From Thermofilaceae archaeon (GTDB taxonomy: Archaea > Thermoproteota > Thermoprotei > Thermofilales > Thermofilaceae): a DNA stretch of 64,000 nt. The stretch lies in NCBI GenBank assembly GCA_038861545.1, contig JAWCCZ010000004.1:32001-96000 (forward strand), written 5' to 3'. Both the position numbers and the translations under genes were made by a program. Numbering within the stretch: the first letter of the stretch is position 1; every line of letters starts with the position of its first letter. Below the pieces are notes generated by a model. That model searched no databases, was not told where the DNA came from, and saw nothing but the letters and a program-made list of their open reading frames with translations. Shown here one piece after another: positions 2,344 through 24,450 of the stretch.

Positions 2344-4551
2344 TTACATTACTAACGGCTCTACTTCAACTAAGATATTATGCGGTTCCAACCCTCTACG
2401 TAACACAGCCCGACCGCGAATCCCTCGACGGAACCAGGCTAGCTCGCCTGAACCCAGCGCCATGTAGATTTGGGTCATGGACACATAGTCGGGATCGCTA
2501 TGGCTTAGAGCAAGCTTCCAGCCAGCTGTCCTTCTGAAGCTTTCCGGCACATCCCCCCAGTCATGAGTAAGCAGTATCACGGCTAGTCCGAATTTTCTTA
2601 GCATCCTTGCCGTAGTAACCACCTCTGGTTCTAGGTAACCTTCAGGCGGTCTCATGAAGAGATGAGCTTCATCTACTATTAGGAGCCATCTTGGTTCGCT
2701 AAGGCCAAGCTTTAAGGCGTGGTCGCGCATTTGGGCTAGCGTCAAACCAAATGTGAACTGCTGTATTTCTAAAGGCATAGACTTATACTCACCTAAAGCA
2801 CTGCTACCCATGCAGAGCACTAGAGGGCGGTTCGCCTCAAGCAAGTAGCGCAAGCTAGTTACAGGTTTGCTGTAGTAGGGTTCTACACGTCTTAACTTCC
2901 ATGATAAACTAGAGTCTCTAGAATTTTGAATCAAGCTTACGAGATCCCTCACTCCGCTGTCTAAGCACCTTCGTAGGATTTCTACCTCGTAGTCGTTAAG
3001 CGGAGAAATGTACCTTATGGACTTCTCTAGATCCTCCAGCCTACACTCGAGCGGATCAATAGGTCTATCAGCTAGATCCACGATTTCGAAACCGTAGTAG
3101 TTTGCGAAAGCCCTGTATTCGCCTGAGGGATCAACTATAACTGGCACGATTCCCTGTTCAACAGCTCGAACTGCCAAAGCGCGTGCGGTAGTGCTTTTAC
3201 CTGAACCCATAGGTCCTACGATTAAACCATGAACGTTCTCCAAGGCGTCAATTTCCAGATATACTTTCTCGCTTTTACGTGTACCGCGACCCAGATAGAT
3301 AGCTCTAGGCGTTCTACGGGTAGCCGCTCTAACGAAGGCATAAGGTGACAGCCATGCAAGCTGGCTGCTAACTTGAAGGGAGGAGTTTGATCCTCCCGGC
3401 AACCCTAAAATTGCCCTGGCCAACTGTAAAACAGCCTTCCTACCAAATAAAGAATTGACCTGAAAGCTTTGCTTAAGTCCAATCGATTCAAGCCTCCATA
3501 CAGGTCCTTTTGAGAAAAATTCTACCCTAAATGGCATCTGTCCTTCTTCAACTGCTCTGTAAATCTTGAATACTGCAACCGCCTTAAATTCGTCGCTTAG
3601 CTTGCTAGCTCCAGCTCGGCCAGCTTCCAACACTTCTAAAGCCTTAGAGGCTTTAGCTTGAAGCTCTGCAAGATCCTGAGGAATTACTAAGGCTACTATG
3701 GGTTCCTCGTATTGTGTGAAAAGTCTCTGAAGAATCCTTAAGCTCGACCCAAGGCTCCCAGCTTCAGGAATATCATTGGTCAGGGAGCTTAGAGAAATCA
3801 GTGGCATAAAACGTAAAACTATTCTTCCGCCTTTGACAAGCTTAAGTTCTTCGAAGATTATTGGAATAGGAATTAAAATAATTAAGATAAGCCCGGGAGC
3901 TAGAAAGTAGAGTAAAATGAGTGTTAAGAGATTTGAGAGAAGAACGTAGGGTAATGTGAACCCGTAGTTGCTCTCCTCTAAAGAAACTAACTCGGGGAGA
4001 ACTTCTGAGGGATTAACTAGAGATGTATATACACCGTAAACAGTAAGTCGTCGCCTGATCTCGGATACAAGCTGGGAAAAACTACTTATCATTGCGTTTA
4101 AATCTTCTTTATAGATCGCATTTATTTTCAGGTAGTAACTATAATTTTCCCGGCGAGGGAGCGCGATCACGTTGAAAGTTGTATTAGGAATATGTAAAGC
4201 GGATATAACTCTGGAAGCTTCTTCGCCGAGCTTGATATCGCTGTCGTGGAAATCTATATCTATAACTTTTAAGAATGAACTTAATATGCAGAAATTTCTT
4301 TTCTTAAATGATATTATTACATAGTTTTTCTTAAAAATAAGTTTATCTAAATTTAATAAAAGTAAAGCCCTCTCCCCGTAGAGGATCTCTATTAATGTTT
4401 CCCTGTTCACATAAATAAAATAAAAACCAAATAAAGTAGCTAAAAAGGTTAAGGGAACAGGCGTACCGGAGGCAAGGGCTAAGAGCATCGCTAGCATTAA
4501 AGCGAAAAACAGGAGCATTTTTTCAAAGCCGGGCAAGTACATAAAAATCAC
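2344..4551 (-). CDS. Membrane-anchored VirB4/HerA-like ATPase (CedB/TedB-like)
   Basis: N-terminal TM segments; Walker A GPMGSGKST, IVDPSGEY, Walker B LIVDEAH, RKFG arginine finger; last gene of the CedA/pilin run. Confidence 0.8.
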   Translation of the reverse strand: MIFMYLPGFEKMLLFFALMLAMLLALASGTPVPLTFLATLFGFYFIYVNRETLIEILYGERALLLLNLDKLIFKKNYVIISFKKRNFCILSSFLKVIDIDFHDSDIKLGEEASRVISALHIPNTTFNVIALPRRENYSYYLKINAIYKEDLNAMISSFSQLVSEIRRRLTVYGVYTSLVNPSEVLPELVSLEESNYGFTLPYVLLSNLLTLILLYFLAPGLILIILIPIPIIFEELKLVKGGRIVLRFMPLISLSSLTNDIPEAGSLGSSLRILQRLFTQYEEPIVALVIPQDLAELQAKASKALEVLEAGRAGASKLSDEFKAVAVFKIYRAVEEGQMPFRVEFFSKGPVWRLESIGLKQSFQVNSLFGRKAVLQLARAILGLPGGSNSSLQVSSQLAWLSPYAFVRAATRRTPRAIYLGRGTRKSEKVYLEIDALENVHGLIVGPMGSGKSTTARALAVRAVEQGIVPVIVDPSGEYRAFANYYGFEIVDLADRPIDPLECRLEDLEKSIRYISPLNDYEVEILRRCLDSGVRDLVSLIQNSRDSSLSWKLRRVEPYYSKPVTSLRYLLEANRPLVLCMGSSALGEYKSMPLEIQQFTFGLTLAQMRDHALKLGLSEPRWLLIVDEAHLFMRPPEGYLEPEVVTTARMLRKFGLAVILLTHDWGDVPESFRRTAGWKLALSHSDPDYVSMTQIYMALGSGELAWFRRGIRGRAVLRRGLEPHNILVEVEPLVM

Positions 4552-4569
4552 TTGAGCTTTAGTTACCGG

Positions 4570-7500
4570 TTATGTCAACTCATGTTGCAATTCTTGGAGG
4601 AGGTTTTCACCTAACTCCCTAAGTTTACATGCGCTATCGCATAAACTTAAGAGCACGGCATCAAGTGATTGTATAATGTTCACCATGTCGTAGAGGTCTC
4701 TGAATAGCAGCTTTGACCTATATTCATAAGCCTCAATGCGAATAGCTCGGACTTTCTCTTCAACTTCTCTTGATATACGAACAGCTTCCTCCACGGTTTT
4801 GTAGACCTTCATTGTTTCTCTACGTTCGTAATCCCTAAGAGCCGGCGAGTGCCACGGTTGAAGCGGAATCATATAACAGTTTAAAAATTTCATAGCCTCT
4901 CCAAGGTTTTTAGCAGCCGCTACGCCTTCTCGACAGGCTCTAGCGACAAAGCGGCCGAAAACTGAGTATAATTCGTCAAAGGACTTCTCTAAACTTAGGC
5001 GAAATATCTGCTCGATTATCCATTGACCTCCACCTTCTTTAGATACTTTTGCTGATGCATATCCAAGCCAGTAAGGGTCTCCACTTAATATATAGAATTC
5101 CACGGCTTTCTTTGCGTCTACACCAGCTTTTTCGAAAGTTTTCCAAAAACCTTCAATAATTTTCAGTTCTTCACGAGATAAATAAAGTTCATTTACATCG
5201 TTGATAAAGAGCTGTAATGTCTCTAGAATACTATACAATTGGTCACTCTGTTTAACTTGATCCAGAGCCATTCTAAAACTTTTTAATAGTTTCTCGGTAC
5301 CGGGAGGTAATTCGCCCACAAACCAAGGTTTATGCCCCTTCATGGTCTCTTGAACTAATCTTAAAGCTAGGTAGCGCCAACTCTCTCCTTTTTCGAGCGA
5401 GGCAAGCCAGGTAACAGCGAGACTAAATCCAGTACCTAAAGTTTCGAGTAATTTCTCATCTACATTGACCTTGGAAAGCCCTGAGAACAACGCTGTTTTA
5501 ACTTCATCGTCCGGTCTGAATATTCCAAGTGAAGCTGAGTCGGCTACTCTTAGAGCAATTTCGGGTTTCTCGCTTAGCAATTTCAATGTCAGAGTGCTAG
5601 CGTTGCCTATAGCACATGTAACTAGCGCAACTCTCCATACAAGCTCCCCTACCTCCAGCTTATCTGGTTCTGTAACCAATGCAACTCGCATTACTGATGG
5701 GGGTACGGTTATCGTGGTAAGAGCTCTAAAAAATCTTTGTATATCCTTAGGTTTCGGTTTCCCTCCTTGAAGCACCGTTTTTGATATTATATCTGAATAA
5801 GTCTTTAGAGAATCGATCCCCCTACAGCCCCCCTTATTAAGTAAGCCTACCCTAGTGGGGATCATTGATGCAAGTTTCACCTCCTGTAAAGTTCTTTTTA
5901 CAAATTTTGAAGACAGTGGTGTTGCAAACGGCTTCATGTTAAGCATCCAGGCTACTGCGTATAGCATGTCGCTTGCCGCTAACAATTTACTACCAACTGG
6001 ATGAAGCAAAGCCGCGAATAGTCGCTCTTCGTCCCGGAGCAAGGGATTCGTAACTTTGAATGCTGCTCTCCGCAACAGCTCTCCAGCCATATATAGAATA
6101 AAAGGCAGGGGGTAGGATTGCCTATGTCTCCACATAAACCTCAACATAGATTTCCCTACATGCGTGATCCTACCTTTAGGTGAAGAATTGATAGTCGCGA
6201 GGGTGGCTCTGTGAAGTTCCTTTAACGTACGCATATTATCTTCTAACCTTTTTCTTAGATCATATAACTCGTAAAGGTGAGGGCCTACAGCCATGCGGGA
6301 TAAACTTCTTCCCCTCTTTGTATTAATTAACGATTCGATAAAACCCAGTGCTGCCCTACCAAAGTCCTCAAGCAGATGAATTGATTTACTCAGTGGAATT
6401 AGAGGAATAACTCCTTTTATTGCAGTACCGCCGAAAATCCAACTTAGCATGTCGACACCTACAAATGATGCAATTAACGCGCTAGCAATTAAAGCAAGGA
6501 GCGAGATTCCATTAATTATATCAAGGGTTTCTTCTTTAATCAAATTTACATATGAGGGCTGGATTATGTCCTCCAGTAAAGTATCATAAAATAGCCCTGA
6601 AACCACGGACTCATCGAGCACTGTAAAATTAGCTATAACCAATTCAGGCTCGCATGTGCCTATTCCGCTAACCAAGGGAAGAGGCACTGTAAAGGTTGAG
6701 GCACTGGACCCCGTAGTGATTGGTCCAACAATAGCTGGTCGAGTCACGTTTCCAAAATATCTGACATTAACAGTCACAGAAGCAACATTTGTTTTAGGCC
6801 ATAGACCTTGCGAATAGAGAAGACGTTTATTCCATAAAATAGCGTGAATTCCGGACTGGTTACCATATAGACACCGGTTAGTTTCCGGGTTAACCATTGA
6901 GAGAGGTAGAGAGGCGTTTAGCACTCGAGCATATTGATCAAACCACTTAATTGCCTCGATTCTAGAGTCGGAGAAGATAAAATATTTTCGTTCCACTTGA
7001 CAGCTGAAAGCTGGTATAACTTTTAGCTTTGAACCGTTAATTGTTATTTCGCTTTCACCAGCGTCTATGATTGTAGGTTTACCGTCCTGGCATATACCAT
7101 CTGCGTTAATATCACCTTCGATCCAGATGGTGACATCTGTAACTGTCACATTAAGAGAATCAACTGATCCTTTTTCACTCTCTGGGGAAAAATCGTCAAG
7201 GACTACGTTACTCTGTAGTATATTCACTAGGCCTATTCGTGGATCAGCTACACCCACTACTTCATGGTTTAACAAATAACCTCCAACGGGGTACCATGGT
7301 AGCGATTGCCCGTACCTTTCTGAGCCTTCGTAAAGGAAAAAGCCTCGGCCAACCCATACTCCCCAGCCCTTAGGTGGGCTACCGTTAAGCTGAGCATTAT
7401 CGCTAAAAGCTACAATACCTTTACTGACTTTTATGCACACTATCGTGCAATTCTTAGATGATGAGCAGAAGTTGCTCCATCGTAAAGCTCCTTCCTCAGT

Positions 7501-8436
7501 GTCAATTGCCTGAGCTGAGAATTCAATAGGAAAATTACAAGGTTTCACATGGAAAGTGATACCTTCAAATGGCACGCTCAACCCGGAATAATATAATCCG
7601 ATTACCTCGTACTGGTCCACATACTCCATATAAGGCACGCCCGCCTGTCTCGCTGCTATACGACCGCTCGAGCTTCTATATACTATGATAAAACCCGGTG
7701 GCGCTTTAACACTTAACTCCTTAACGTTAAGTGTCGTGCTTAAACTCACGACTGGTACTGTTAGTTCGACTTCAAATTTTAATATTCCAATTTCCTTTAC
7801 TACTTCTTTTACAGGCTTGGGCTTCACGGCTATTGCGATACAGTTAAGCACAAGAGGTATCAGCAGTCCAAAGCCTACTCCGAGGGCCACCAATGTTGCT
7901 CCGAATCTTCTCGTAGTCCGGGAAACTAGGAAAACGCCACCAGTTGTAATGAGGAGTGGATATAAAAAATCTCCTAGATCGGCCACTACCATGTAAACCT
8001 GGCCGATGAATCTAAATACTTGTAAAGAGAATAAAGATGCGTTAAGGATAGAACTTATAGTATTTATGCCTGCATATGATAGCGAAGCTATTAAAGCTAT
8101 TGTGCCCCCACTCATTATAGATGAAATCAAAACAACAGATAAAATAATAGAATTAAGAGTAGAAAAAGCCAGTGCTCTTTGAATATTTACAGACATTGCT
8201 TCTTCGCATGATTGTACCGCTTCCCTACCGAGCCTTCTTGTCAATTCACTGGAAAGAATAGAAAAATCAACTCCAGCTAGACTGGCAACAATTTCTGCAA
8301 TATTGAGAGTTGTTAAAACTACAGCTAAAACAAAGTAGCCTACTGCAACAGTTAAACGATCCTGCTCTTTTCTATATCTCCAGGCTATAAATGCTGCTTC
8401 CGCTAAAAGTACATAGCCTAGTATGTTTTTCCACAT
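4570..8436 (-). CDS. Giant CedA/VirB6-like membrane protein with large extracellular insert and long helical C-terminal tail
   Basis: Multi-TM N-terminus with motif LITTGGVFLVSRTTRRFGATLVALG matching the neighbouring CedA-like gene; beta/Cys/NxS-T-rich middle; further TM near aa 640-670; ~600 aa helical tail. Confidence 0.6.
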   Translation of the reverse strand: MWKNILGYVLLAEAAFIAWRYRKEQDRLTVAVGYFVLAVVLTTLNIAEIVASLAGVDFSILSSELTRRLGREAVQSCEEAMSVNIQRALAFSTLNSIILSVVLISSIMSGGTIALIASLSYAGINTISSILNASLFSLQVFRFIGQVYMVVADLGDFLYPLLITTGGVFLVSRTTRRFGATLVALGVGFGLLIPLVLNCIAIAVKPKPVKEVVKEIGILKFEVELTVPVVSLSTTLNVKELSVKAPPGFIIVYRSSSGRIAARQAGVPYMEYVDQYEVIGLYYSGLSVPFEGITFHVKPCNFPIEFSAQAIDTEEGALRWSNFCSSSKNCTIVCIKVSKGIVAFSDNAQLNGSPPKGWGVWVGRGFFLYEGSERYGQSLPWYPVGGYLLNHEVVGVADPRIGLVNILQSNVVLDDFSPESEKGSVDSLNVTVTDVTIWIEGDINADGICQDGKPTIIDAGESEITINGSKLKVIPAFSCQVERKYFIFSDSRIEAIKWFDQYARVLNASLPLSMVNPETNRCLYGNQSGIHAILWNKRLLYSQGLWPKTNVASVTVNVRYFGNVTRPAIVGPITTGSSASTFTVPLPLVSGIGTCEPELVIANFTVLDESVVSGLFYDTLLEDIIQPSYVNLIKEETLDIINGISLLALIASALIASFVGVDMLSWIFGGTAIKGVIPLIPLSKSIHLLEDFGRAALGFIESLINTKRGRSLSRMAVGPHLYELYDLRKRLEDNMRTLKELHRATLATINSSPKGRITHVGKSMLRFMWRHRQSYPLPFILYMAGELLRRAAFKVTNPLLRDEERLFAALLHPVGSKLLAASDMLYAVAWMLNMKPFATPLSSKFVKRTLQEVKLASMIPTRVGLLNKGGCRGIDSLKTYSDIISKTVLQGGKPKPKDIQRFFRALTTITVPPSVMRVALVTEPDKLEVGELVWRVALVTCAIGNASTLTLKLLSEKPEIALRVADSASLGIFRPDDEVKTALFSGLSKVNVDEKLLETLGTGFSLAVTWLASLEKGESWRYLALRLVQETMKGHKPWFVGELPPGTEKLLKSFRMALDQVKQSDQLYSILETLQLFINDVNELYLSREELKIIEGFWKTFEKAGVDAKKAVEFYILSGDPYWLGYASAKVSKEGGGQWIIEQIFRLSLEKSFDELYSVFGRFVARACREGVAAAKNLGEAMKFLNCYMIPLQPWHSPALRDYERRETMKVYKTVEEAVRISREVEEKVRAIRIEAYEYRSKLLFRDLYDMVNIIQSLDAVLLSLCDSACKLRELGENLLQELQHELT

Positions 8437-8437
8437 G

Positions 8438-9238
8438 TTAAACCCTCAGTCTAGCTATTAGTGACTCGGGTAAGCCACCAGCAGCGGTAACGGCTCCGAT
8501 ACTTAAGGCCGCGGCTACAGTAGTGGAAAGCGTGAACCACGCTACGCAATCTCCCATTGCTTTAGCATCGTTTATTACTTCTTCTACCGCCCCTGCAAAA
8601 TATTGCGCTATCCCTGCAATCGGGATTCCAATGTACTTGAACCTTAACTCAGCAGCTGCACTATTCAAGTAGGGCGCGGCTACACCTACATAGACCTGGA
8701 GAGTAACAATACTAATCGCTAATGTAGGGCCTACCCTTTTAAACCTACTTATTCCTGTTAATACGATACCTAGGCTAGCTAGCGGTGAACCATAGATAGA
8801 ACAGAGGCGCGAGGCAACAAGGAGCGCTGTGCTGACCGTCATTAGGTATGTAGCGAAAAAATTTGCTAGGCTGCAAGCTGCATGCCATGTAGCAGCTAAA
8901 GGAGCCAATATACCAGTCAATGTAATATCTCGGGCTACATTAGCTAAATCCATTACGTAAGTCGTGTACCTATCCCTCGTTTGAAGGCAAAGTTGCTCAG
9001 CTTCAGCTGGGGATACTGAAAATATACCAAAAGCCGAAAGTATTATCTGTGAAGAAAGCAGAATAGCAGCCAGGATAAGGCCTAAAACCGCACTTTCAAA
9101 GGCATCGTATATTGTGACAAACCCTTTAGCTTTAATCTGTGGTGAAGGATTACTCAAGAGCCATGCTCCATAGAGTACCTCTATTGCAATGAAGGCGAAT
9201 GTAAAACCATATGCTGTCAAATCTATGCTGACTACCAT
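8438..9238 (-). CDS. CedA/TedA (VirB6-like) DNA-transfer channel protein
   Basis: 266 aa, ~6 TM; GAWLLSNPSPQIKAKG..IYDAFESAVL and LGIVLTGISRFKRVGPTL resemble conserved CedA segments; lies between a pilin and a VirB4-like ATPase. Confidence 0.7.
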   Translation of the reverse strand: MVVSIDLTAYGFTFAFIAIEVLYGAWLLSNPSPQIKAKGFVTIYDAFESAVLGLILAAILLSSQIILSAFGIFSVSPAEAEQLCLQTRDRYTTYVMDLANVARDITLTGILAPLAATWHAACSLANFFATYLMTVSTALLVASRLCSIYGSPLASLGIVLTGISRFKRVGPTLAISIVTLQVYVGVAAPYLNSAAAELRFKYIGIPIAGIAQYFAGAVEEVINDAKAMGDCVAWFTLSTTVAAALSIGAVTAAGGLPESLIARLRV

Positions 9239-9283
9239 AGCAATCGTAATTATAAACAGTTAAAAGATTATTTATAATTATCG

Positions 9284-9667
9284 TCACGGCTGCATGAATA
9301 TTTCGTTCCAACTAACAGTGAAAGGAGTTCCTTGAGGTAATAGGCCTATTGACACTAGTATGTCAGGTAGCCAGGCTACTAAGGCTAGAGAAAGCAACCA
9401 AAATATTGGACCTTCTAGGGTTTCGTAAAGGTCTCTGAGAGCACTACCCGAGTACACGCCACCGACTTGCTTTTTAAGTCCAGCTATCGCCGCTCGTATT
9501 AGTGAAGCTAGGAAAACTAATAAACCTGTTATTGTTATTGCTAATTTAATAGTTAGAATTGCGTAGCTTTGTAAAGCGTTAATATTTACAATGGGACCTT
9601 GGGCTTGAATAAGAGGTAAAGTAAACAAAACAAATACAACAAAAACTGCAATTATATTGCCTTTCAT
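9284..9667 (-). CDS. VirB2-like pilin (TedC/CedA1-like)
   Basis: Sec-type signal peptide (..PLIQA|QG) followed by two hydrophobic helices joined by a basic loop; directly upstream of the CedA-like gene. Confidence 0.6.
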   Translation of the reverse strand: MKGNIIAVFVVFVLFTLPLIQAQGPIVNINALQSYAILTIKLAITITGLLVFLASLIRAAIAGLKKQVGGVYSGSALRDLYETLEGPIFWLLSLALVAWLPDILVSIGLLPQGTPFTVSWNEIFMQP

Positions 9668-9692
9668 AATAATTAAATAGAGGTATTATATT

Positions 9693-10064
9693 TTAATTTT
9701 TCGATTGTTCTACAGGCATTATTTCCACGCAGTTCTTCTCGTTGCTGTAAAATATTCTCAACCGCACTCTACCTTTCGGTAAGGTATTTACACCTGTGTC
9801 TTTGCAAGCCTGATAGACCTTAATAGATAACCCGCATTCTTCTGAATATAATAAGATTGTATCCCCCTTCAATATATCTATCTTGGGTAAATCGTACACG
9901 TCGGTTATAGTACCTCTATTAATGGAAATGTATAGAAGGTCCCTTGACAATCTCCTGATATCTATGCATTTATCGTCTAATCTAAGGCTGAGCGCGTTAA
10001 TGGAGCTAATGGTGATACATACCATTGAAACCATGAAAACAATAAATAGAATTGCTTTCTCCAT
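9693..10064 (-). CDS. Pilin-like protein, N-terminal TM
   Basis: N-terminal hydrophobic helix plus small Cys-containing beta domain; in an array of similar genes. Confidence 0.55.
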   Translation of the reverse strand: MEKAILFIVFMVSMVCITISSINALSLRLDDKCIDIRRLSRDLLYISINRGTITDVYDLPKIDILKGDTILLYSEECGLSIKVYQACKDTGVNTLPKGRVRLRIFYSNEKNCVEIMPVEQSKN

Positions 10065-10074
10065 TTAACCACCT

Positions 10075-10698
10075 TTACGGAGGTATTCTTAAAATAATAC
10101 CAAATTCATCTCTCAGCTTAATCCGCTCTGGGACGCCGATTATCCACTTGCAGGGTCCATCTGGTTTTATATCAGCTATTTTCTCCGGGTCGGGGTGTAT
10201 AAGGGGGCATAGTGTAATATTAAAGAAAGGACTAACGTATCGGTGTATGTAGCTCACAGAAAAGCTGACCATATTGCATACTGCGCCCGAAATCGCTTTA
10301 ACGTATGTGTGTCCCTTGGTTACCCTTATCTCCACCTGAATCTTCACTTTAGTGTTTCCTGTTAGGGTTCTAACTTCGAAATCGGTTACATTAATTAGGT
10401 ATGTTGTCTCACCGTAGCTGAAGCGAAGTGTAGAGACGCTGAAGTTTGTAACTTCAAATAGTAGTAAGTTATAGCTTTCATTCATTGAATATAGTTGTTC
10501 AAGTAAGCTCTGGAGAACCTCGCTATTGCAGCTTTCTGTAGTTAGGCAAGCTCTTGCTAAGTGAACTAGCATTGCGGCCTGAAGATGCCCACGCTCGTAC
10601 ACGTAGATAGGCTCCTCCGGTAACGTTGAAACTATTGCAATGATTATTACAGCTAAAGCGGTAACGCCTAGTAAGGCAAACTGTGCTGTATGTTTCAT
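10075..10698 (-). CDS. Minor type IV pilin-like protein
   Basis: Class III-like signal MKHTA|QFALLG.. then hydrophobic helix; GTGAGG SD upstream. Confidence 0.6.
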   Translation of the reverse strand: MKHTAQFALLGVTALAVIIIAIVSTLPEEPIYVYERGHLQAAMLVHLARACLTTESCNSEVLQSLLEQLYSMNESYNLLLFEVTNFSVSTLRFSYGETTYLINVTDFEVRTLTGNTKVKIQVEIRVTKGHTYVKAISGAVCNMVSFSVSYIHRYVSPFFNITLCPLIHPDPEKIADIKPDGPCKWIIGVPERIKLRDEFGIILRIPP

Positions 10699-10709
10699 CT
10701 AACCTCACC

Positions 10710-11039: not shown

Positions 11040-11158
11040 AGTAGGGTTTAACTTTTAAGTCGGTAACTAGAGTCGTAGAGGACATGAATACCTGAACTTT
11101 CAAACTTACCTAAATTGACTTTCTAGTTTTCCGCAATCGAAGCTTACCTAACGTGTAA

Positions 11159-12065: not shown

Positions 12066-12143
12066 ACACTCTTAAGTTACTCCTTAAAATAAAAATCTTC
12101 CTCAAAGTTCTAAAGACCTCTTAGAGATGAGTGACAAGTTACG

Positions 12144-12266: not shown

Positions 12267-12309
12267 AAAATATAATAATATCTTAATTTAACAATTATAA
12301 CTGGTAAAT

Positions 12310-15065: not shown

Positions 15066-15142
15066 AATCTATAATTAAAATAGTATAATAATTTAAACTT
15101 TACGCATATTTACGCTTACTGCAGCTTAATGCGACTCTGAAT

Positions 15143-18100: not shown

Positions 18101-18514
18101 ACCGTTCCAGCTCCAGAGGGAATTTACATAACTATGATCCGGATATAGCCAATACCACCATTTGATGTACATTTTCAGGTAATTGTAAGGTTGCCACATA
18201 CCATTATATGGCACGCTACCTTCGTAACGGTACTTTAAAGCCGCTATTGTCGGGCCTTTCTGTGAATCGTAGTCCCTAGGTATAGTGCCCCGCACACCTA
18301 TTCCGTGGACATCTTCTACCACTTCACCGTCATACCGGACGGAACAGTAGGTTGTAGAGCAACTGCTCAAAGCGATATCAGCGTCCCACCAATCCGGGTA
18401 TCCACAGAAACTGGTATTAGAGCAGTAGGGTGTTGATCTAACCTCCTTCACAGTCATATAATAGATCAAGAGAAGCATCAAAGCCAGTAAGGCTAACTTA
18501 TGTAACTTCATCAT
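15143..18514 (-). CDS. Large secreted surface glycoprotein / putative adhesin
   Basis: Signal peptide, many Cys and NxS/T sequons, beta/Tyr/Trp/Gly-rich; AQPAPGYKFAGW segment like InlB-B/Flg_new repeat. Confidence 0.7.
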   Translation of the reverse strand: MMKLHKLALLALMLLLIYYMTVKEVRSTPYCSNTSFCGYPDWWDADIALSSCSTTYCSVRYDGEVVEDVHGIGVRGTIPRDYDSQKGPTIAALKYRYEGSVPYNGMWQPYNYLKMYIKWWYWLYPDHSYVNSLWSWNGNKSCECTLSWESGTTGGHNNNPTIKPPTQPDTDNTVYLYPPEYQYSFAGPSAQLSSGIPVVGCGWTGATMYYTVYYGKVQGFVYMGGGIREVGSGDGDIGSAMFWVTGAYYPRVSESSPPSRYQQLIVPITGMFHTRVVGPYSLYYPYNVSLASSYLYTITVNPDAKPYAALNVGWTHSFNSVYGNGGLAGNVSFVKTRNYLGTASMSTANLTGIYRVYYKAEGIGDLWVEKGTRNGWLQLTYHQGSMDLEVKSLDIELKNEPIRIRVRSWSSTAMTAYAAIAQPAPGYKFAGWWTGYARLSSPSQWYWTGFVEDATVTGGVTANYIVGTLAAYKYEPNMLLRARILTPLPENSWVNDMVQLQGVVDDVYVSPLLCLNGSNTQGFVVSNRYMFTAPLQITATVRILEGVLDITLGRGIYRWNQYFSGTYDVTASVIKIGSSWNNPDIDVYICPSPDAPLWRCSALITDLSSGSTRWTTKTALNININGYITIYNSGSTGKVNLSVIKLNSTNFVLKYWDVNGQEVKGSTIFGLRPSNVTTITACYAPEGYVYHSPMLLTNRSIFLPGEGLPNPLLNRIWGLSGLWMVNVTIFYPDRVTDNSAKIYVMLTNGSEVVYVPFSWLKVNMTVDWSRVADSCETCTGSKCVVKWNASSIGIFPQIIDGNIPSLYKNWYFLALVAWNPEAVLSQASSTVDASQLWIGNVTYAVYNLIFHHLDSGLKIRQPVVVSQLEIVNITPSYRFEEYSPQLRRRTTIVSLNVTLMWKYKPPSSVNATLGLPTEELGVSLESYKGEIGFWSYQPTSLREDSVTYSLNLGDSLLFYEKVYPAGLKNSTGSYMQPFQIWVRWQHNLGTASSARLTKYQLSAPVNVTLVPATVVSVNWEADSLSIGWQCFTSGNVGESFLGEAPWHADIIIEIEEWDIKEGSRRLVKVFYFKDKIPKDKLNIGIGIREKWIAAYLKPVSGIFSNYNKIYIIIPLPIRYPPRL

Positions 18515-18545: not shown

Positions 18546-20033
18546 TTAGCTTTCCCATTCCACGACTTCTATTTTAACGTACATAGTTCCATAGGACGTA
18601 ATAAGAAGCCAACCCTCCTTAATCCCTTCAAGTAGCCTGTATGATGGTCCACCCTGTGCTTGTCCACAGGATCTAGGTATCCCGTTCTCTAAGCCAAACT
18701 CGCATTTGATATATTTATTATACTCTGGCGAGGAAAATGGGTCGTAGCCAGGCACGTTCCAAGCCTTCAAGGCTTCCCTATCAAACAACACCACTACGTA
18801 GCCTGTTCCGTACACGTTACCTGTGGGGAGGACGTAACGGCCACATGCAAGGGTATCCGCTACGTTTCTTATGACCATCATAATGTATGAGTCGGCTATC
18901 TTACTGGGCGTGGTCGTGAGGTTCGCATATACTCTAATTTTTCTCCAGCCTTCTGGTGGCTCGATAAAAACACTTACCCTACCGCCTTCAAGCTTTAGGA
19001 CTCCATTACCTAGATACTCATACTCACCGATGAACGGGACTATCATCCACCTATCCCCGGGGATAACCGGAGCTTTTACCATTGTTCCATTAGGTGTAAG
19101 TATTTCTGTGTATTTGATTGGATACACTAGCTTCGTGTAGACAACCACCTGCTCTAGTTCTAAATCTTCCATTGCGGTTACATGAAGCCTTGGACTTGGC
19201 CACTCGCCTTTATTCACGAGCCAGGAGACAAGGCAAACTAAGTGAGTTTCATTAAAAAACACACAACCCCTTCTATCAGATCCATACGGCTCAACCGATA
19301 TAGTAGCGTTTAGCTTTACACGGAGAGATGCATCTTGTGTGCATGGGATTCTACTCATGTTCCCATTTGTAGTTATAGTGATGTTCACCGGCACGAGAAC
19401 CCTCTTCAATGTAACTAAAACCTTCGCTTTAACGAAATTAAATAACTCTGTCTTGTTGTCTTCAACCAACACTAGTAAAGTACCCCAAGGCCACTCCCAG
19501 CCTTCAGGTGGCACAGGTTTAATCTGCAACACGCTACAGGCAGGAACTTCAACTTCCACGGGCAGTATAAACAGGGACTTGTTCACCATCAGCAAACTCC
19601 CTTTAACGTTAGACTTGAAAACAACCCTATACCTGGACTTTTCGAAAACTGCTTCAACAGTAGTATTACCCCTTACATAAAGCCGGAGTTCTGGCATTGT
19701 GTCGTAAATTGTACCATTCACCAACCACCACTTAAAAGCCCAGCACCTCCTTGGCTGAGCTCGAAATTCCAGTAAAAAAGGTTCTGTAGAGTTTACCAGT
19801 GTAATCTCGCTACCATTCACCAATACTTTACCTTCTCCCTCTGAAATTATAAAAACGAAAAATGGTCTCGATTGGGTTGACTTCTCAACATTTGAAATTT
19901 CAGAACTTTCCGAGAACCCTACAGATCCCTCCTCTCTTAACAAGAATATAGATATAGTTATTCCAATGATCACTACAACTGCTGCTAATGCTACTTTGAC
20001 ACTTTTTTCTAACTTAATGCGTTTATATTTCAT
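18546..20033 (-). CDS. Membrane-anchored surface protein with InlB-B/Flg_new-like repeats
   Basis: Likely start MKYKRIK (GGGAGG SD); single TM; repeats such as GEGKVLVNG..RAQP..WAFKWWLVNG..NTTVEAVF. Confidence 0.7.
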   Translation of the reverse strand: MKYKRIKLEKSVKVALAAVVVIIGITISIFLLREEGSVGFSESSEISNVEKSTQSRPFFVFIISEGEGKVLVNGSEITLVNSTEPFLLEFRAQPRRCWAFKWWLVNGTIYDTMPELRLYVRGNTTVEAVFEKSRYRVVFKSNVKGSLLMVNKSLFILPVEVEVPACSVLQIKPVPPEGWEWPWGTLLVLVEDNKTELFNFVKAKVLVTLKRVLVPVNITITTNGNMSRIPCTQDASLRVKLNATISVEPYGSDRRGCVFFNETHLVCLVSWLVNKGEWPSPRLHVTAMEDLELEQVVVYTKLVYPIKYTEILTPNGTMVKAPVIPGDRWMIVPFIGEYEYLGNGVLKLEGGRVSVFIEPPEGWRKIRVYANLTTTPSKIADSYIMMVIRNVADTLACGRYVLPTGNVYGTGYVVVLFDREALKAWNVPGYDPFSSPEYNKYIKCEFGLENGIPRSCGQAQGGPSYRLLEGIKEGWLLITSYGTMYVKIEVVEWES

Positions 20034-20185
20034 CCCTCCCCAGTAACATGGAATATAAGCCGGCATGTCTAAGACCCTTACATGCAATTAATAAAAATAA
20101 ATATCAGAGTTATATAAAAATTTTGGAACTAAGTGAACAATCCATATATAGAAAAACTTATAAACTGGAATTTTAAAATTATTTT

Positions 20186-20605
20186 ATGACCAGAAGAAGT
20201 GGTGGAGTGCCAGGAATCGTGACGGTGATCATAACTATTGCATCAATAGCGGCAGCGGCGCTTGTTGCGTACTTCATGTATACTACAACTAGAAGTGCGA
20301 CTAGCCAACCGATAATAGAGGTAACCTCTGCTTACGCGAGCGGCTCTAATCTGGCTCTAACTATCAGGAACCTTGGATCCGTAGACGTTACGATTACAGA
20401 TGCTTCAATAGTCATTAGGGATATCAGTTGTGTGGCACAAAATGCAAATAAACAACTAGCTAAAGGAAGTAGTATAGTAGTATCTGCTTCTTGTAGCTCA
20501 TTAGCTTTAAGTGATGGTGACAGTGGTTACGTCACGTTGTCCGGAACCACACAAAATAATTTAGCTTTCAGCATAACTATAGGCTTCAGAGTAGTTGTAC
20601 CTTAG
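20186..20605 (+). CDS. Archaeal type IV major pilin
   Basis: Class III signal MTRRSGG|VPGIVTVIITIASIAAAALVAYF; LTIRNLGS motif; S/T-rich globular domain. Confidence 0.85.
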   Translation: MTRRSGGVPGIVTVIITIASIAAAALVAYFMYTTTRSATSQPIIEVTSAYASGSNLALTIRNLGSVDVTITDASIVIRDISCVAQNANKQLAKGSSIVVSASCSSLALSDGDSGYVTLSGTTQNNLAFSITIGFRVVVP

Positions 20606-20654
20606 CGTTGATTTAGCGTAATAAATTAATATAAGTAATTTCTTTTTTACCATA

Positions 20655-21872
20655 ATGAAATTAAATAAATGGATCCGATCCGAAGTTGATGCTATACCTT
20701 TAGCTCTTATAATGCTTTCTTCACCTCAACTACCTTTAACCACCTTAAGGGAGTTGAAAAAAGTTGGCTTTGATTACTTACCCGATCCTGAGGAACTCAT
20801 ATCCGGTTACGCTAAACTAAACTGGCTATCCGAGAGAATGAAGAAAATTCTAGATGGCGCTATTAAAGCTCAGCTTTCCGGTAATCGTAACTCTTTAGAG
20901 GAAAAACTAAAGGATATACTAGCTGAGCTTTCAACAACTCTTGAAACAACCGATCATAACATCTCTAACCTTTACAGCCTTGTTTCAACGTTTACGAGTA
21001 CAGTCCCAGTAACTATAGTAGCAACGCAAGCTCTGCTCGGTGGAGGTGGAACCGCAACTGCTCTAAGTATGGCATTCATTGGTTTAATTATTGCTATGCT
21101 AGTTGGCTTCTGGGCTTTCCCCTGGGAGTTCGGTATATCTACACCTAAGCTGCAGACTTACGCGTTGCTACTACTGATCATGCCTTCTTACCTTCTTTTT
21201 AACTGTTTCAGCATACCCAATCCCTTTCTGCTTTCTCTTGCACTTGGATCCGCGCCTAGCGCTGCTTTCCACCTGCACCACACATTAAGTGAACTCAAAA
21301 AAATGGATAAATCTAGGGAATTGATCCGCGTGGCGGCACGAGCTATAGGCAATCCTTACTTAGCACTCGCTAGAGAGAAACTTTTAAAGGATCCGGAAGA
21401 GCTGTTGAATCAGGAGTGGAAAGGCTTCAGCAAAGCTGCTACGCTGGGCCTATGGCAGGTTCTCTTGCATGGTGGTTACGAGAACCTGCAGAAGTTGGAT
21501 GATTATGTTTCTAAAGTACTAGAGTTCACTAAACGGCTACGCTCAAAGACTAGAATCTTCCTAGTGTATGCGATTATTGAAGCCGCGATAGTAGCAGCGA
21601 TTTACGCGGTGATCCTCGGCATTGAACCGCTGTTTACGGAAGGGGGAGAATGGATGATTAAAGCTGGGATCAGTATATTGGGTTTAAGAGAACTAAGAGA
21701 AAATATTGACCAGATACTTTCTCTAAATGCACTTACATTAGCGGTAGCCACTGCGAGTGCCCGCGAGGGAAGACCCCATTTGCTTACCATGTACCTCCCT
21801 CTAATCGCCGGTATTGTGTGGTTTTTCTGGCTTATCTCCTCTACGCTTACGCCATTGCTAGTGGGTGGTTAG
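20655..21872 (+). CDS. Type IV pilus platform protein (TadC/ArlJ-like, T2SS F domain)
   Basis: Two cytoplasmic helical domains each followed by TM bundles; directly behind the pilin. Confidence 0.7.
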   Translation: MKLNKWIRSEVDAIPLALIMLSSPQLPLTTLRELKKVGFDYLPDPEELISGYAKLNWLSERMKKILDGAIKAQLSGNRNSLEEKLKDILAELSTTLETTDHNISNLYSLVSTFTSTVPVTIVATQALLGGGGTATALSMAFIGLIIAMLVGFWAFPWEFGISTPKLQTYALLLLIMPSYLLFNCFSIPNPFLLSLALGSAPSAAFHLHHTLSELKKMDKSRELIRVAARAIGNPYLALAREKLLKDPEELLNQEWKGFSKAATLGLWQVLLHGGYENLQKLDDYVSKVLEFTKRLRSKTRIFLVYAIIEAAIVAAIYAVILGIEPLFTEGGEWMIKAGISILGLRELRENIDQILSLNALTLAVATASAREGRPHLLTMYLPLIAGIVWFFWLISSTLTPLLVGG

Positions 21873-22235
21873 GTGAAAGTTGATGCCGTTGTAACAATTT
21901 TCACAGCTGTATTAGCAGTAACGTTAATTCTAACTGCTTATTCTAAATACAATTCACTACAAGTTGAGGCCTACAACTGTTATGGAATAGCTCAATATAT
22001 AGCTAAGCATATTGCAAGAAAACTGGTTGAAGGAGAATCTCTTAATCTTGCTTCTTTGAAGGGGTGGGAAGTCTACATTTACTATTCCAACGGTACTGTA
22101 TGCCACTACGCGCTTAACATAATCCTGTGTGAACATGTAAATAACTTTAAACCTCAAAGCAAGTATAGGTGTTACACGTACTTCCTCGCTAGCGATAACT
22201 CTCCACAGCCCGTACTAGTAGAGGTGAGGGGATGA
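21873..22235 (+). CDS. Pilin-like protein, N-terminal TM
   Basis: MKVDAVVTIFTAVLAVTLIL N-terminus; abuts the TadC-like stop; C-terminal CYTYF..VLVEV similar to the 10710-11039 protein ending. Confidence 0.6.
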   Translation: MKVDAVVTIFTAVLAVTLILTAYSKYNSLQVEAYNCYGIAQYIAKHIARKLVEGESLNLASLKGWEVYIYYSNGTVCHYALNIILCEHVNNFKPQSKYRCYTYFLASDNSPQPVLVEVRG

Positions 22236-22248
22236 ATGTACCCAGATT

Positions 22249-22284
22249 TGGGTCTTTAGACCCATTAATGGGTCTAAAGACCCA
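22249..22284. repeat. Perfect 36-bp palindrome made of two 16-bp palindromic units (putative parS-like centromere/operator)
   Basis: TGGGTCTTTAGACCCA-TTAA-TGGGTCTAAAGACCCA equals its own reverse complement; extra half-site ACCCA at 22240-22244. Confidence 0.92.
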
Positions 22285-22330
22285 GCATTGATGCAAACCT
22301 TCATAAGCAAGTATAGGAAAAAGAGGGGAA

Positions 22331-22663
22331 ATGAGCGAGTGTGATCCAAGCTTAATTACACGTTCACTGCTTGAAGAGGGAATGTACCAGCACATTGCAG
22401 TTCTGGTTCTTCTTTATAGGGAGAAAAATAAAAATAAAGATGAAATCATGATGAGTGACCTAAGGTATTTGCTTGGGAGTGGAAAATATCTTGCAAGCAA
22501 TAGGTATGCCGAATCAATAGTTAAAGATTTAAAAAATTTAGGTTTATTAAACGAAAAAAAAGTTAAAAAATTTAGATTTTTAAGTTTGACAAGATGTGGT
22601 GAGGAGGTTTCTAAACTATTAAATAATTTGATAGAGGATGTTGAACGATCTTCAAACCCTTAA
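22331..22663 (+). CDS. Winged helix-turn-helix DNA-binding protein (AspA/PadR/MarR-like)
   Basis: IVKDLKNLGLLNEKKVKKFRFLSLTRCGEEV wing motif; directly upstream of ParB. Confidence 0.75.
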   Translation: MSECDPSLITRSLLEEGMYQHIAVLVLLYREKNKNKDEIMMSDLRYLLGSGKYLASNRYAESIVKDLKNLGLLNEKKVKKFRFLSLTRCGEEVSKLLNNLIEDVERSSNP

Positions 22664-22687
22664 GGGGAAAGTTTTAATAAGTTCGTT

Positions 22688-23608
22688 ATGTATTTAATAC
22701 TCATGGAACAGGTAACCTTTATACCTTTAGATAAGTTAGTGCCTTCATCAGTTAACGTGCGAGTATATGTTGACCAGCTAAGGGTCCGTGATTTAGCAGA
22801 GAATATCTCGGTAAATGGACTCCTCCACCCTTTGGTAGTGAGGCCAGAGGGGAAAGTTTACGGGATAATCTGCGGGCGGATGAGGTTCGAGGCAATAAAG
22901 TTGCTGCATGAAGAAAGCCCTGAAATCTTTACGAAACTATTCTCAAACGGGGTTCCATGTTTTGTTAAAGAGCTTTCTGATAGAGAAGCTGTCGAATTAT
23001 CTCTCAGTGAAAACCTGCGTCAGAACAATCTAACACCTGAGGAAGTTGGTAGAGCAGTAGCCAGACTTTACGAGCAAGGGCTTGAGGAGGAAGATATTAG
23101 AAGGAGAGTGCAGCTACCTTTAGAGGATATTAAGAGATTTGTGAGGCTCTATGCGAGGCTTCGAGAAATTACGCCATTCACTGCAGAATCGAGGCCCGGT
23201 AGACCTTCACCGAGGAGACGTAGGGTAAGCAGAACCGGTATGGAGAAAGTTGTCCGTGTAGTGGAAAACCTGGAAAGACAAGGATTGGTGGAGAAGCCGG
23301 AGGAGGTTACCAGGAAACTTGCTGAAATAGCTTCTGAAAAAAAGCTGAGTACAAGTGAACTTGAGATACTGGCGCATAAGCTGCGCGAAAAGCCAGAGCT
23401 AGTGAGAAAACCGGAAGAACTGAGCAGATTAGCGGACGAGATAGCTGGTGAAGAGATGGTTGAGCGAATAGTATTGCTGAGGAGAAAGGTGATAGACGAT
23501 GTTAGCGAGTATGCAAAACTTAAAGGATTAACTTTCAACGAAGCGGTTAACGAGCTTCTCGAACGCGCTTTATCCCGAATACGCCATGAGCAGTTTAGCG
23601 TTCACTAA
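22688..23608 (+). CDS. parB: ParB/RepB/Spo0J family protein with C-terminal RHH-like domain
   Basis: NVR, GLLHPLVVRP, GRMRFEA (GxxRxxA), SENLRQNNLTPEE; C-terminal strand-helix-helix pattern. Confidence 0.85.
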   Translation: MYLILMEQVTFIPLDKLVPSSVNVRVYVDQLRVRDLAENISVNGLLHPLVVRPEGKVYGIICGRMRFEAIKLLHEESPEIFTKLFSNGVPCFVKELSDREAVELSLSENLRQNNLTPEEVGRAVARLYEQGLEEEDIRRRVQLPLEDIKRFVRLYARLREITPFTAESRPGRPSPRRRRVSRTGMEKVVRVVENLERQGLVEKPEEVTRKLAEIASEKKLSTSELEILAHKLREKPELVRKPEELSRLADEIAGEEMVERIVLLRRKVIDDVSEYAKLKGLTFNEAVNELLERALSRIRHEQFSVH

Positions 23609-23613
23609 ACTGC

Positions 23614-24450
23614 GTGGTTTTCTTGGCCAAAGGTGTCGAGTTTCTATTAGAATTGCTAGACAATGGAAGGCAGCTCACAATAATAGGATTACCGGGAGCC
23701 GAGCGAGCTGCTTTCTTATCTTCGATTATTCAAGCAGCATTTAGCGGTAAGTATGACATATTAGTGCTTGACTGGTACGGCAACCTTGCTGGATTAAACC
23801 TCCCCTCAGCAGGCTTCGCTCTACCCTACACCGCTATCCGCCCATACATCCATCGTGCTCTTTCAACGCCACCAGATCTGCGATCAAGCTCTGCAACTTT
23901 GGAGGCTGTAATAACTGAATGCGTCTCTGAAGCGACAAATTTGCAGCAAGCACTTTCAAGCCTATTAACTAAAAGTAGTGTAAACCCTGCGTCAAAGCTT
24001 GCATATTTAAGATTCCAGAGCATTTTGGCATACATTTCAGATATTGAAAACATGCAAACACATGCTTACGTTGATCTATCAAAAATACCTATTTTGGTTA
24101 GAGGCGTGATGCTACAGCTGTGGATAGCCTTCGCTCATCACCTTCTCTTAAGCAACCGACCGCTTAAGAAACAACTACTCGTGGTTGAGGAGGTGGGACG
24201 GGCACTTAGAAAAAGTGTATGGGTATGGGACTTAATCGATGAGATGACAGTGCGTGGAGTACGTTTAATATTAACTGACCAATACGTCAGAAGATCGTAC
24301 CTTAACTCTGTACTGGTGATTGTAAACATGAGCAACGAGACCCTTTACTCTACTATGCGATTTAGGATCCAGCTACCCATGATACCTAAGAGAACTGGTG
24401 AAGCAGTAGTAGTCGATGGAGCGGAACATTACACCGTACACTTCAGTTAG
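23614..24450 (+). CDS. Degenerate (probably inactive) HerA/VirB4-like P-loop protein
   Basis: TIIGLPGAERAA in place of Walker A, VLDWYG, LLVVEEVG, RGVRLILTDQ, GEAVVV. Confidence 0.65.
   Translation: MVFLAKGVEFLLELLDNGRQLTIIGLPGAERAAFLSSIIQAAFSGKYDILVLDWYGNLAGLNLPSAGFALPYTAIRPYIHRALSTPPDLRSSSATLEAVITECVSEATNLQQALSSLLTKSSVNPASKLAYLRFQSILAYISDIENMQTHAYVDLSKIPILVRGVMLQLWIAFAHHLLLSNRPLKKQLLVVEEVGRALRKSVWVWDLIDEMTVRGVRLILTDQYVRRSYLNSVLVIVNMSNETLYSTMRFRIQLPMIPKRTGEAVVVDGAEHYTVHFS

Follow-up and report, generated by a model that had tools for sequence, protein, structure and literature searches.

The 64,000-nucleotide stretch analysed here (the window; positions 32,001 to 96,000 of contig JAWCCZ010000004.1) belongs to the 1.63-Mb assembly of a Thermofilaceae archaeon and contains a locus of 21 open reading frames (ORFs), g01 to g21, that occupies ~22 kb (positions 2344-24450). 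In the reading that we favour and hold to be moderately probable, this locus would encode a resident chromosomal apparatus for cell-to-cell DNA exchange of the conjugation-derived Ted type, extended by an adhesive type IV pilus of its own and by a DNA-site module of a ParB protein and a winged helix-turn-helix (wHTH) protein. The locus is a variant of Ted and not a categorically new system. An earlier note on this DNA had listed the genes, a 36-bp palindrome and a gap of 9 nt between the g21 stop (24450) and the CCA-encoding 3' end of a tRNA-Arg gene, and ORF, repeat and tRNA scans return the same inventory at exactly the same positions. For comparison, 30-60 kb around the loci of six relatives were searched by tblastn and with hidden Markov models (HMMs) built from orthologues; these are G001, the sister genome of the same genus, G017 and G019 of a second genus, and the further relatives G006, G025 and G030.

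Ted consists of three proteins: the VirB2-like pilin TedC, whose signal is of the signal-peptidase-I type, the VirB6/CedA-like TedA with seven transmembrane (TM) segments, and the VirB4-like ATPase TedB. ParA/VirC1-like, HerA-like and recombinase genes lie near it, and it is described from five Thermoproteales genera, Thermofilaceae not included (Beltran et al. 2023, PMC9905601). In the genome used as the Ted anchor (G093), an ORF of 153 amino acids (aa) matches PDB entry 8dft_A, 'Pilin protein', at 7.5e-64 over residues 38-149, which is the ordered part reported for TedC of Pyrobaculum calidifontis (PMC9905601). This ORF is TedC, and the next ORF (310 aa, seven TM segments) is therefore TedA, with TedB as the 685-aa ORF upstream.

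The TedA homologue of the window is g03. The alignment of its family, 16 members collected by an exhaustive HMMER search, matches TedA of two Pyrobaculum genomes nearly end to end (hhalign, probability 95.8 %, E 7e-9, 244 columns). The family is narrow, comprising 18 clusters among 1.84 billion representative proteins, and an NCBIfam scan gives no match to it; searched in the genomes of the class, its profile matches ORFs of 260-400 aa. A feature score of 0.93 to a 'CedA1 domain' cluster of the ESM-Atlas is a lead only, and the AF2 model, built from 4 sequences, is unusable at pLDDT 50. The putative ATPase of the channel is g01, which carries two pairs of N-terminal hydrophobic segments. It matches Pfam DUF87 (7e-11) and NCBIfam VirB4_plasma (5e-13) and CedB (7e-9), the latter two below the families' own cut-offs, and its HMM finds TedB of P. 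calidifontis at 5e-20; these matches support the earlier description of the protein as a VirB4-like ATPase.

The earlier note had counted two CedA/VirB6-like proteins, of which g03 is solid whereas the N-terminus of g02 is tentative. In the giant protein g02, a multi-TM domain at the N-terminus is accompanied by an exposed domain of ~430 aa, a further two TM segments and a cytoplasmic helical tail of 600 aa, and no Pfam family matches it. Its residues 72-202 align with the g03 profile (hhalign, 22 %, E 1e-3) and have the motif R-x-x-R-x-G-x-T-L in common with it, and the g03 profile also matches the g02 orthologues of G030 and G006; with a shallow g03 profile, the hhalign comparison with g02 is insignificant. 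In Pyrobaculum-like genomes, giant frames of 4386-5058 aa follow directly after TedA (G097:C1:519672, G093:C1:722934, G112 and G105), and a short segment of these frames matches positions 126-200 of the g03/TedA-like profile, an arrangement comparable to that of g02 after g03.

The VirB2-like pilin of the earlier note corresponds to g04, for which architecture and position stand and sequence similarity to TedC does not. Its signal peptide ends in AQ/G in all seven orthologues (AVA/QA in TedC), and AF2 models a signal helix followed by a hairpin of two long hydrophobic helices (29-68 and 73-106; pLDDT 74). The gene lies directly upstream of the TedA homologue g03, in the same position as tedC. 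A comparison of g04 with g03 by hhalign is insignificant, and PDB profile searches with the families of g04, g03 and g21 return nothing meaningful.

Full-length relatives of g01 are found in the sister genome (79 % identity), in all five genomes of the second genus (50-53 %), in a single genome from each of two other genera of the family and in two other families of the order (34-36 %); the rest of the genomes searched gave none. All six relatives, which represent three families, have essentially the complete gene set, and it resolves into block T (g15-g14-g09-g08-g07-g06-g05-g04-g03-g02-g01, a single co-directional run in G025 and G030), block P (g13, the ParA, followed by g10, the ATPase g11, the g16 pilins, g17 and g18) and block C (g19, the wHTH gene, and g20, the ParB gene, with or without g21). 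These blocks are inverted or permuted between lineages and still lie together, and this ParB is present in 10 of the 11 genomes with the full-length ATPase. The linkage of the modules that the earlier note had seen in one locus is thus maintained across three families despite reshuffling, and the comparison supports reading the three modules as one conserved unit.

A chance arrangement is ruled out because the gene set recurs in six other genomes. It is likewise highly improbable that the three modules are unrelated systems that became neighbours by chance: the four transcription units on both strands would suit such an account, as would the compact Ted-like core of G011, which lacks adjacent pilin, platform and ParB genes, and the g20-type ParB of some genomes in which the g01-type ATPase was not found, yet the linkage has outlasted repeated rearrangement and the trio of ParA, g10 and ATPase connects the 'pilus' part with the 'Ted' part. 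Among the carriers, G006 is closed in one contig and belongs to a genus with several complete genomes, which suggests that a cultured strain may exist.

Two clusters outside these relatives were observed in addition. In a fifth family, matches to a HerA/VirB4-like ATPase, a g03-like protein and a ParB-like protein lie within 8 kb (G026:C27:8807-16738), and the association of ParB with Ted-like genes may reach beyond the present locus type. In another family of the class, a comparable, Vulcanisaeta-like composite cluster (L029+L030, G081:C1:957001-997000) contains ParA, a PilB-like ATPase of 527 aa, pilin-like ORFs, polytopic proteins of 382 and 294 aa, a 137-aa protein with two TM segments, a VirB4-like ATPase of 697 aa and a 1431-aa protein with six TM segments. 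Its similarity to TedC and TedA is weak (8-21 %), and the small two-TM protein does not match TedC in the PDB.

Table 1. Coordinates of the genes, transcription units, palindrome and borders of the locus (window positions).
Feature	Position	Strand	Description
Left flank	2-2021		GFO-type oxidoreductase and URO-D-like gene
g01	2344-4551	(-)	735 aa; VirB4/TedB-like ATPase anchored in the membrane; Walker motifs GPMGSGKST (A) and VDEAH (B)
g02	4570-8436	(-)	1288 aa; giant polytopic protein
g03	8438-9238	(-)	266 aa; ~7 hydrophobic segments; TedA (VirB6/CedA-like) homologue
g04	9284-9667	(-)	127 aa; candidate conjugative-type (TedC/VirB2-like) pilin
g05	9693-10064	(-)	123 aa; one N-terminal TM segment; conserved in G001, G017, G019, G006
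g06	10075-10698	(-)	207 aa; pilin-like, sequon-rich; class-III-like RRGQ/LAL in orthologues; in all six relatives
g07	10710-11039	(-)	109 aa; N-terminally anchored; MRHLEA... motif
g08	11159-11482	(-)	107 aa; N-terminally anchored; MAVDEA... motif, common to g18
g09	11472-12065	(-)	197 aa; N-terminally anchored, exposed; heads the g09-g01 unit; kept in all relatives
g10	12310-12660	(+)	116 aa; disordered N-terminus and conserved C-terminal coiled coil; possible ParA adaptor
g11	12677-14176	(+)	499 aa; PilB/TadA/VirB11-type secretion ATPase
g12	14163-14411	(+)	82 aa; basic; 60 % identical in G001 only; genus-restricted, doubtful gene
g13	14382-15065	(-)	227 aa; ParA/MinD/VirC1-like ATPase (KGGTGKT)
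g14	15143-18514	(-)	1123 aa; large secreted/anchored surface protein; 20 N-x-S/T sequons
g15	18546-20087	(-)	513 aa; anchored surface protein; 12 sequons; fast-evolving
g16	20186-20605	(+)	139 aa; major type IV pilin; class III signal peptide
g17	20655-21872	(+)	405 aa; polytopic pilus platform (TadC/GspF/UpsF-like); always adjoins pilin genes
g18	21873-22235	(+)	120 aa; N-terminally anchored; always after the platform gene; possible minor pilin
Palindrome	22249-22284		36 bp, perfect; 46 nt upstream of g19
g19	22331-22663	(+)	110 aa; wHTH protein; linkage to ParB kept in all relatives
g20	22688-23608	(+)	306 aa; ParB with N-terminal ParB domain, HTH, basic linker (PGRP/RRRR) and helical C-terminus
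g21	23614-24450	(+)	278 aa; small HerA/DUF87-like P-loop protein; degenerate Walker A GLPGAERAA, Walker-B-like VVEEVG retained
Unit g09 to g01	12065-2344	(-)	Transcription unit
Unit g10 to g12	12310-14411	(+)	Transcription unit
Unit g15, g14, g13	20087-14382	(-)	Transcription unit
Unit g16 to g21	20186-24450	(+)	Transcription unit
tRNA-Arg(CCT)	24460-24535	(-)	ARAGORN and Rfam; right-hand border of the locus
Right flank	24460-26892		tRNA-Arg(CCT), then GH5 cellulase

The ATPase g11, the platform g17 and the class III pilins together make up the content of the Ups operon, which supports the assignment of these genes as a complete Ups-like type IV pilus set. The TadA homologue of the earlier note, g11, matches Pfam T2SSE at 9e-13, and its best NCBIfam match is the conjugal-transfer-associated TadA family (5e-14), along with ComGA, TrbB and VirB11; the scores of VirB11 and TrbB are nearly equal, and in G011 no pilus genes adjoin the orthologue, which limits the assignment of g11 as the pilus ATPase. 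The major pilin g16 was also correctly recognised, and the class III signal motif [KR]xGG/VPPIVTV is present in all 11 orthologues and paralogues, with a weak match to NCBIfam UpsA (1e-4). No Pfam family, T2SSF included, matches g17, and its likeness to TadC is seen in structure: the ESM-Atlas model has a TM score of 0.76-0.79 to archaeal GspF/T2SSF clusters and a feature score of 0.94, and 27 of its 30 nearest feature matches fall in clusters with some T2SSF members (12-21 % in the rows listed). The genome contains one A24 prepilin peptidase, on contig 3 (Peptidase_A24, 1.4e-11), and two canonical T2SSF loci elsewhere.

The earlier note had described six pilin-like proteins, and all of these (g05-g09 and g18) do have an N-terminal hydrophobic helix, but a class-III-like motif is present in g06 only. 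Genes g05-g09 always accompany block T and not the pilus genes, and their products may belong to the transfer machine instead of being minor pilins. The orthologue of g08 has 206 aa in G019 (L019:18511-19131) and forms the N-terminus of a 762-aa protein in G017 (L017:18719-21007), a range of sizes suggestive of a minor-pilin-like anchor to which a large exposed domain was added. The two large proteins g14 and g15 each have an N-terminal anchor or signal and contain 18-23 sequons per 1000 residues, compared with 0-7 in cytoplasmic proteins. Together with g02 they are the fastest-evolving products, with 63-68 % identity within the genus versus 79-88 % for the cytoplasmic parts; for g14, the identity falls from 68 % within the genus to 24-27 % between genera, where core genes retain 50-60 %. 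The sequons and the fast evolution of g14 and g15 would suit a role at the cell surface, and roughly half of the coding capacity of the locus is devoted to exposed or anchored protein.

The ParA-like ATPase g13 has a weak match to Pfam CbiA (7e-4), its deviant Walker A motif KGGxGK is invariant in 8 orthologues, and its HMM matches, at 4e-7, the ParA encoded in the Ted locus of P. calidifontis, so the earlier assignment as a ParA-like protein can be retained. Its proposed place in a cassette of centromere, wHTH, ParB and ParA cannot. In G006, G017, G019, G025 and G030, ParA heads a trio in which g10, a small coiled-coil protein, lies between ParA and the ATPase g11, and in the window ParA is displaced from this trio by ~2 kb. 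The distance from g13 to ParB in the window is 7.6 kb, the two never form a cassette in the relatives, the gene that follows ParB is g21 and not ParA, and no similarity to AspA was found. In P. calidifontis, ParA and a 133-aa ORF precede TedB. This comparison of gene order places ParA in the Ted-like core, comparable to VirC1, and not in a partition cassette, because the trio is constant in the relatives and also stands beside the compact Ted-like locus of G011; the trio of ParA, small protein and VirB11-like ATPase thus appears to be part of the Ted-like core of Thermofilales.

The compact locus is found in a closed Thermofilaceae genome from which the large locus is absent (G011; L044, G011:C1:866001-882000, 5620-15420). 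It encodes a 197-aa protein with three TM segments, a g03-like protein of 257 aa, an 860-aa protein with six TM segments and a VirB4/CedD-like ATPase split into 360 and 350 aa, and on the divergent side ParA, a 122-aa coiled-coil protein, a VirB11/PilB-like ATPase of 384 aa and an XPD-like helicase. The 16 kb examined contain no pilin, platform or ParB genes.

Prediction of a complex of a ParA dimer with g10 gives a score of 0.53, with the best control at 0.00, and points weakly to an interaction. The mark for such scores is reached by 58 of 80 solved complexes and by 2 of 110 mismatched pairs, but only 7 of the 80 solved complexes, and both mismatches, reach it with a score of 0.60 or less. 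The runs agree in at least 25 % of contacts, and the pLDDT of the partner is at least 56.

The assignment of g20 as ParB proves genuine. The protein matches Pfam ParB_N (1e-11) and, over residues 6-218 with the HTH included, Spo0J (7e-17) and Noc (2e-13); the motifs GxxR and ENLRQN are conserved, PGRP is invariant and is followed by a basic run, and no other ParB_N protein is encoded in the genome. In the C-terminal third of the gene (23190-23600), the PGRP and basic run resemble an AT-hook, and the C-terminus (..ERIVLL..LTFNEAVNELLE..) is ribbon-helix-helix-like by eye, with no Pfam match. The wHTH assignment of g19 is likewise upheld by a profile match to PDB 2qvo (AF_1382) at 7e-5, in addition to MarR/HxlR-type wHTH proteins; AspA is not among the PDB profile matches.

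The perfect palindrome upstream of g19 consists of two 16-bp palindromic boxes, TGGGTCTWWAGACCCA, separated by a TTAA spacer, and is the sole copy in the 1.63-Mb genome. It is kept in G001 with two central changes. In G019 of the second genus, a different 36-bp palindrome occupies the same place upstream of g19, whose product is 27-35 % identical, and the palindrome and its putative binding protein g19 appear to have changed together. This joint change of site and protein argues for a function, with which an operator, a loading site or both would be compatible.

The last gene, g21, is collinear with its orthologue in G030, where GKT is intact and DUF87 matches at 1e-4, and also with the small P-loop ATPase encoded in the Ted locus of Pyrobaculum. 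In the two Thermofilaceae genera its Walker A motif reads GAERAA, YGRRNE or PGFREK, and a Walker-B-like hhhhEE/DEAG remains. By hhalign the match is weak (13 %, E 2e-3), and a comparison of g21 with g01 is insignificant. A dead HerA-like protein, as the earlier note had it, is thus plausible from the collinear alignment and the lost Walker A and is weakly supported by hhalign. The best CedD/TedD-like ATPase of the genome, a 362-aa frame (NCBIfam CedD, 2e-37), is located on another contig (G000:C3:71624-72406).

A paralogue of RadA (Rad51 family) with a helix-hairpin-helix (HhH) domain recurs beside the locus: directly after g01 in G006 (L016:8635-9600), ~3 kb from the ParA end in G025 (L021:1619-2575) and ~6 kb beyond g19 in G030 (G030:C13:35508-36203). 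Another lies inside the Ted locus of P. calidifontis (L042:12226-13164), where it adjoins the small HerA-like ATPase. This recurrence, although circumstantial, would fit the coupling of Ted and homologous recombination that is proposed in the literature.

It is quite unlikely that the locus is an island for surface filaments, adhesion or secretion without DNA transfer, in which the VirB4/TedA-like genes would build an adhesive or secreting filament, the pilus and surface proteins would serve attachment or biofilm formation, and ParB and wHTH would act as a KorB-like local repressor. The large share of exposed or anchored protein is consistent with this view, the palindrome lies at the promoter of the regulator like an operator, and Pfam scans detect no relaxase-like or nuclease gene among the products. 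Relatives of type IV secretion systems (T4SSs) also secrete proteins. However, a ParB of the CTPase type would be unusual as a simple repressor, though KorB shows the possibility, and recombinase paralogues are found repeatedly next to the locus, in three lineages, and also in the Ted locus of Pyrobaculum. Additionally, the closest characterised relatives of the core, Ted and Ced, are tied to DNA exchange (PMC9905601, PMC11868833).

The locus is probably resident in the chromosome. Pfam scans of the 21 products (E up to 0.1) agree with the earlier note that no integrase or relaxase is visible, Rep domains are likewise not detected, and the left border (near 2022-2343) has no direct repeat of the tRNA end that could represent an att site. 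Matching flanks are present in relatives (GFO, URO-D and GH5 in G001, GFO in G019 and GH5 in G017), and the tRNA match adjoins g21 in all three of these genomes. Between the two genera, the identity of core proteins is 50-60 % and that of the flanks 57-67 %. Every genome of the two genera, 7 in total, carries the core genes (ATPase and ParB); both borders are assembled in 3 of them (G001, G017 and G019), and these have the site in common. The genes flanking the locus are absent from the genus with complete genomes. Relatives of g01 and g03 are not found among PLSDB plasmids. The DNA sequencing runs that contain this stretch are hot-spring metagenomes of two studies. In four hot-spring metagenome runs the locus is present letter for letter at ~5-7x, and their contigs, with which a rare excised form would be compatible, contain no credible excision joint. 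One joint, 5164>24463, was considered as an excision junction and discounted, as one side of 25 nt lies inside the tRNA. Long residence with losses is favoured because mobility genes, an att repeat and plasmid relatives are lacking and the flanks are shared with flank-like divergence, in line with the view of the earlier note that the system is domesticated and not an active integrative and conjugative element (ICE).

The main rival account, which is unlikely, derives the locus from a conjugative plasmid or ICE that integrated long ago and may now be in decay; its T4SS-like genes would have moved the element, the pilus would have stabilised mating pairs, comparable to the thin pili of some bacterial plasmids, wHTH-ParB and ParA would have served partition, and integrase and replication genes would be lost or located elsewhere. 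The missing mobility genes and direct repeat, the constant carriage and shared flanks in the two genera and the lack of PLSDB relatives all speak against it, and all genes but g21 are intact in every copy examined. Some observations nevertheless suit such an origin and weigh against the preferred reading. Both ParB and ParA are classic genes of plasmids, and crenarchaeal conjugative plasmids such as pNOB8 typically carry ParA/ParB cassettes. A tRNA gene adjoins the locus with its 3' end, and the locus contains the only ParB of the genome and has a GC content slightly below that of the left flank. Its carriage is patchy across the order (the searches find it in 8 of 22 Thermofilaceae genomes and, within one genus, in 1 of 8), which also fits gain by transfer, and its genomic context differs in G006, G025 and G030. 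In G001, the g21 orthologue is a pseudogene of two fragments in different frames (L013:4452-4839), with the other genes intact.

The preferred reading of a resident Ted-type exchange apparatus faces further counterevidence. No sequence or profile similarity of g04 to TedC or PDB 8DFT is detected, and fold searches with g04 (Foldseek against the PDB, VIA-align wide, and the atlas by shape) return generic helical hairpins only, which is uninformative on a VirB2 identity because a helical hairpin is too simple to discriminate. The RadA paralogue of this genome is unlinked, on another contig (C1:202966). Additionally, DNA import is demonstrated for Ced in Sulfolobales, and for Ted it is an inference of the literature (PMC9905601).

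Outside the coding region, the spacer between the URO-D-like gene and g01 contains a G+C-rich element of ~150 nt (2085-2245) that is ~90 % identical in the G001 spacer, where the surroundings are unconserved. Rfam yields no match to it even with E up to 1, and it may represent an undescribed structured RNA; the tRNA is the only match in the Rfam scan.

According to the preferred reading, g11, g17, g16 and the small anchored minor subunits, recognised by homology, would assemble into Ups-like pili after cleavage by the A24 peptidase, and these pili, with the sequon-bearing and fast-evolving g14 and g15, would gather cells of the same kind. A VirB2/TedC-like tube may be formed by g04, as its architecture suggests, and the membrane channel by g03 and g02, with g01 as the putative motor; homology to Ted components is established for g03 and g01. 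The ParA-like g13 and g10 may place or feed the machine in a VirC1-like manner, with which the predicted complex is weakly consistent. The pair g19 and g20 may bind at their own promoter, to the unique palindrome, and regulate the locus; possibly they would also mark DNA for the channel. In a more speculative version, which we consider improbable, the locus would be a chromosomal fertility system: wHTH and ParB would load at the palindrome and, with ParA and g10, deliver this site to the Ted-like channel, so that the palindrome would act as a relaxase-independent transfer origin for Hfr-like oriented export or import between cells held by pili and adhesins.

How donor DNA is chosen and fed into the Ced and Ted machines is an open question (PMC9905601, PMC11868833, PMC11823120). 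TedD has been added to Ted, and the remaining genes of the Ted locus have been called 'of particular interest' (PMC11823120); VirB4 and CedD occur in Thermofilales, and a ParB-domain nuclease has been proposed for DNA processing in Sulfolobales (PMC11868833). Full-text literature searches find neither Thermofilum paired with VirB4, conjugation or pilins nor a description of VirB4, type IV pili and ParB together in one archaeal locus. The present locus extends Ted-type systems to Thermofilales, where the TedA family is detectable by profile methods, and places a Ted-type channel, a contact pilus, candidate recognition proteins and a putative sequence-specific DNA-binding pair with its unique site in one inherited unit. 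It offers testable candidates for substrate marking (ParB and wHTH), for positioning (ParA and g10) and for species recognition (g14 and g15).

A comparison with the Ted locus reveals a TedA homologue that follows a small signal-peptide protein with two helices, a membrane-anchored VirB4-like ATPase, a ParA-like ATPase followed by a small protein, and, more tentatively, a small HerA-like P-loop protein, in a chromosomal setting without relaxase. The present locus differs in that the candidate pilin g04 has no detectable similarity to TedC, that the giant TedA-related g02 of 1288 aa is additional, and that the HerA-like g21 has lost its Walker A. A type IV pilus set, two large surface proteins, at least five small anchored proteins and the wHTH-ParB pair with its palindrome are also present here, and the HMMs of g11 and g20 match nothing in the Ted locus examined in P. 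calidifontis.

The Ups genes of Sulfolobales, for UV-inducible aggregation pili, and the Ced genes, for a DNA import channel, form separate loci, whereas the channel and the pilus are one unit here. The present locus also has a full VirB4-type ATPase in place of the split into CedB and CedD, and no counterpart of UpsX was identified. Common to both is the occurrence of a T4SS-derived channel with a type IV pilus composed of ATPase, platform and class III pilins (PMC11868833, PMC11823120). The order of palindromic site, small wHTH gene and ParB-domain gene is like that of the partition cassette of the Sulfolobus plasmid pNOB8, but no similarity to AspA was found, the ParB is bacterial Spo0J/Noc-like and has an HTH, the third gene is the degenerate HerA-like g21 instead of ParA, and the ParA-like gene is part of another operon in all relatives. 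That cassette consists of AspA, ParB and ParA.

On the Agrobacterium Ti plasmid, the ParA-like ATPase VirC1 and its small DNA-binding partner VirC2 recruit the substrate to the T4SS (PMC9905601). The present locus resembles this pair in that a ParA-like ATPase is followed by a small partner within a T4SS-related locus, with a specific DNA site nearby; in contrast, g10 is a coiled-coil protein with no recognised DNA-binding fold, wHTH and ParB are separate genes, and there is no relaxosome. KorB, of the KorB/KorA pair of IncP plasmids, is a ParB-family regulator of transfer genes. There too, a ParB-family protein in a region of transfer genes stands beside a small DNA-binding partner and a palindromic operator, whereas the present locus is archaeal and chromosomal, with a single site in the genome. 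The parts that are joined here are separate or absent in the archaea in which DNA exchange has been studied.

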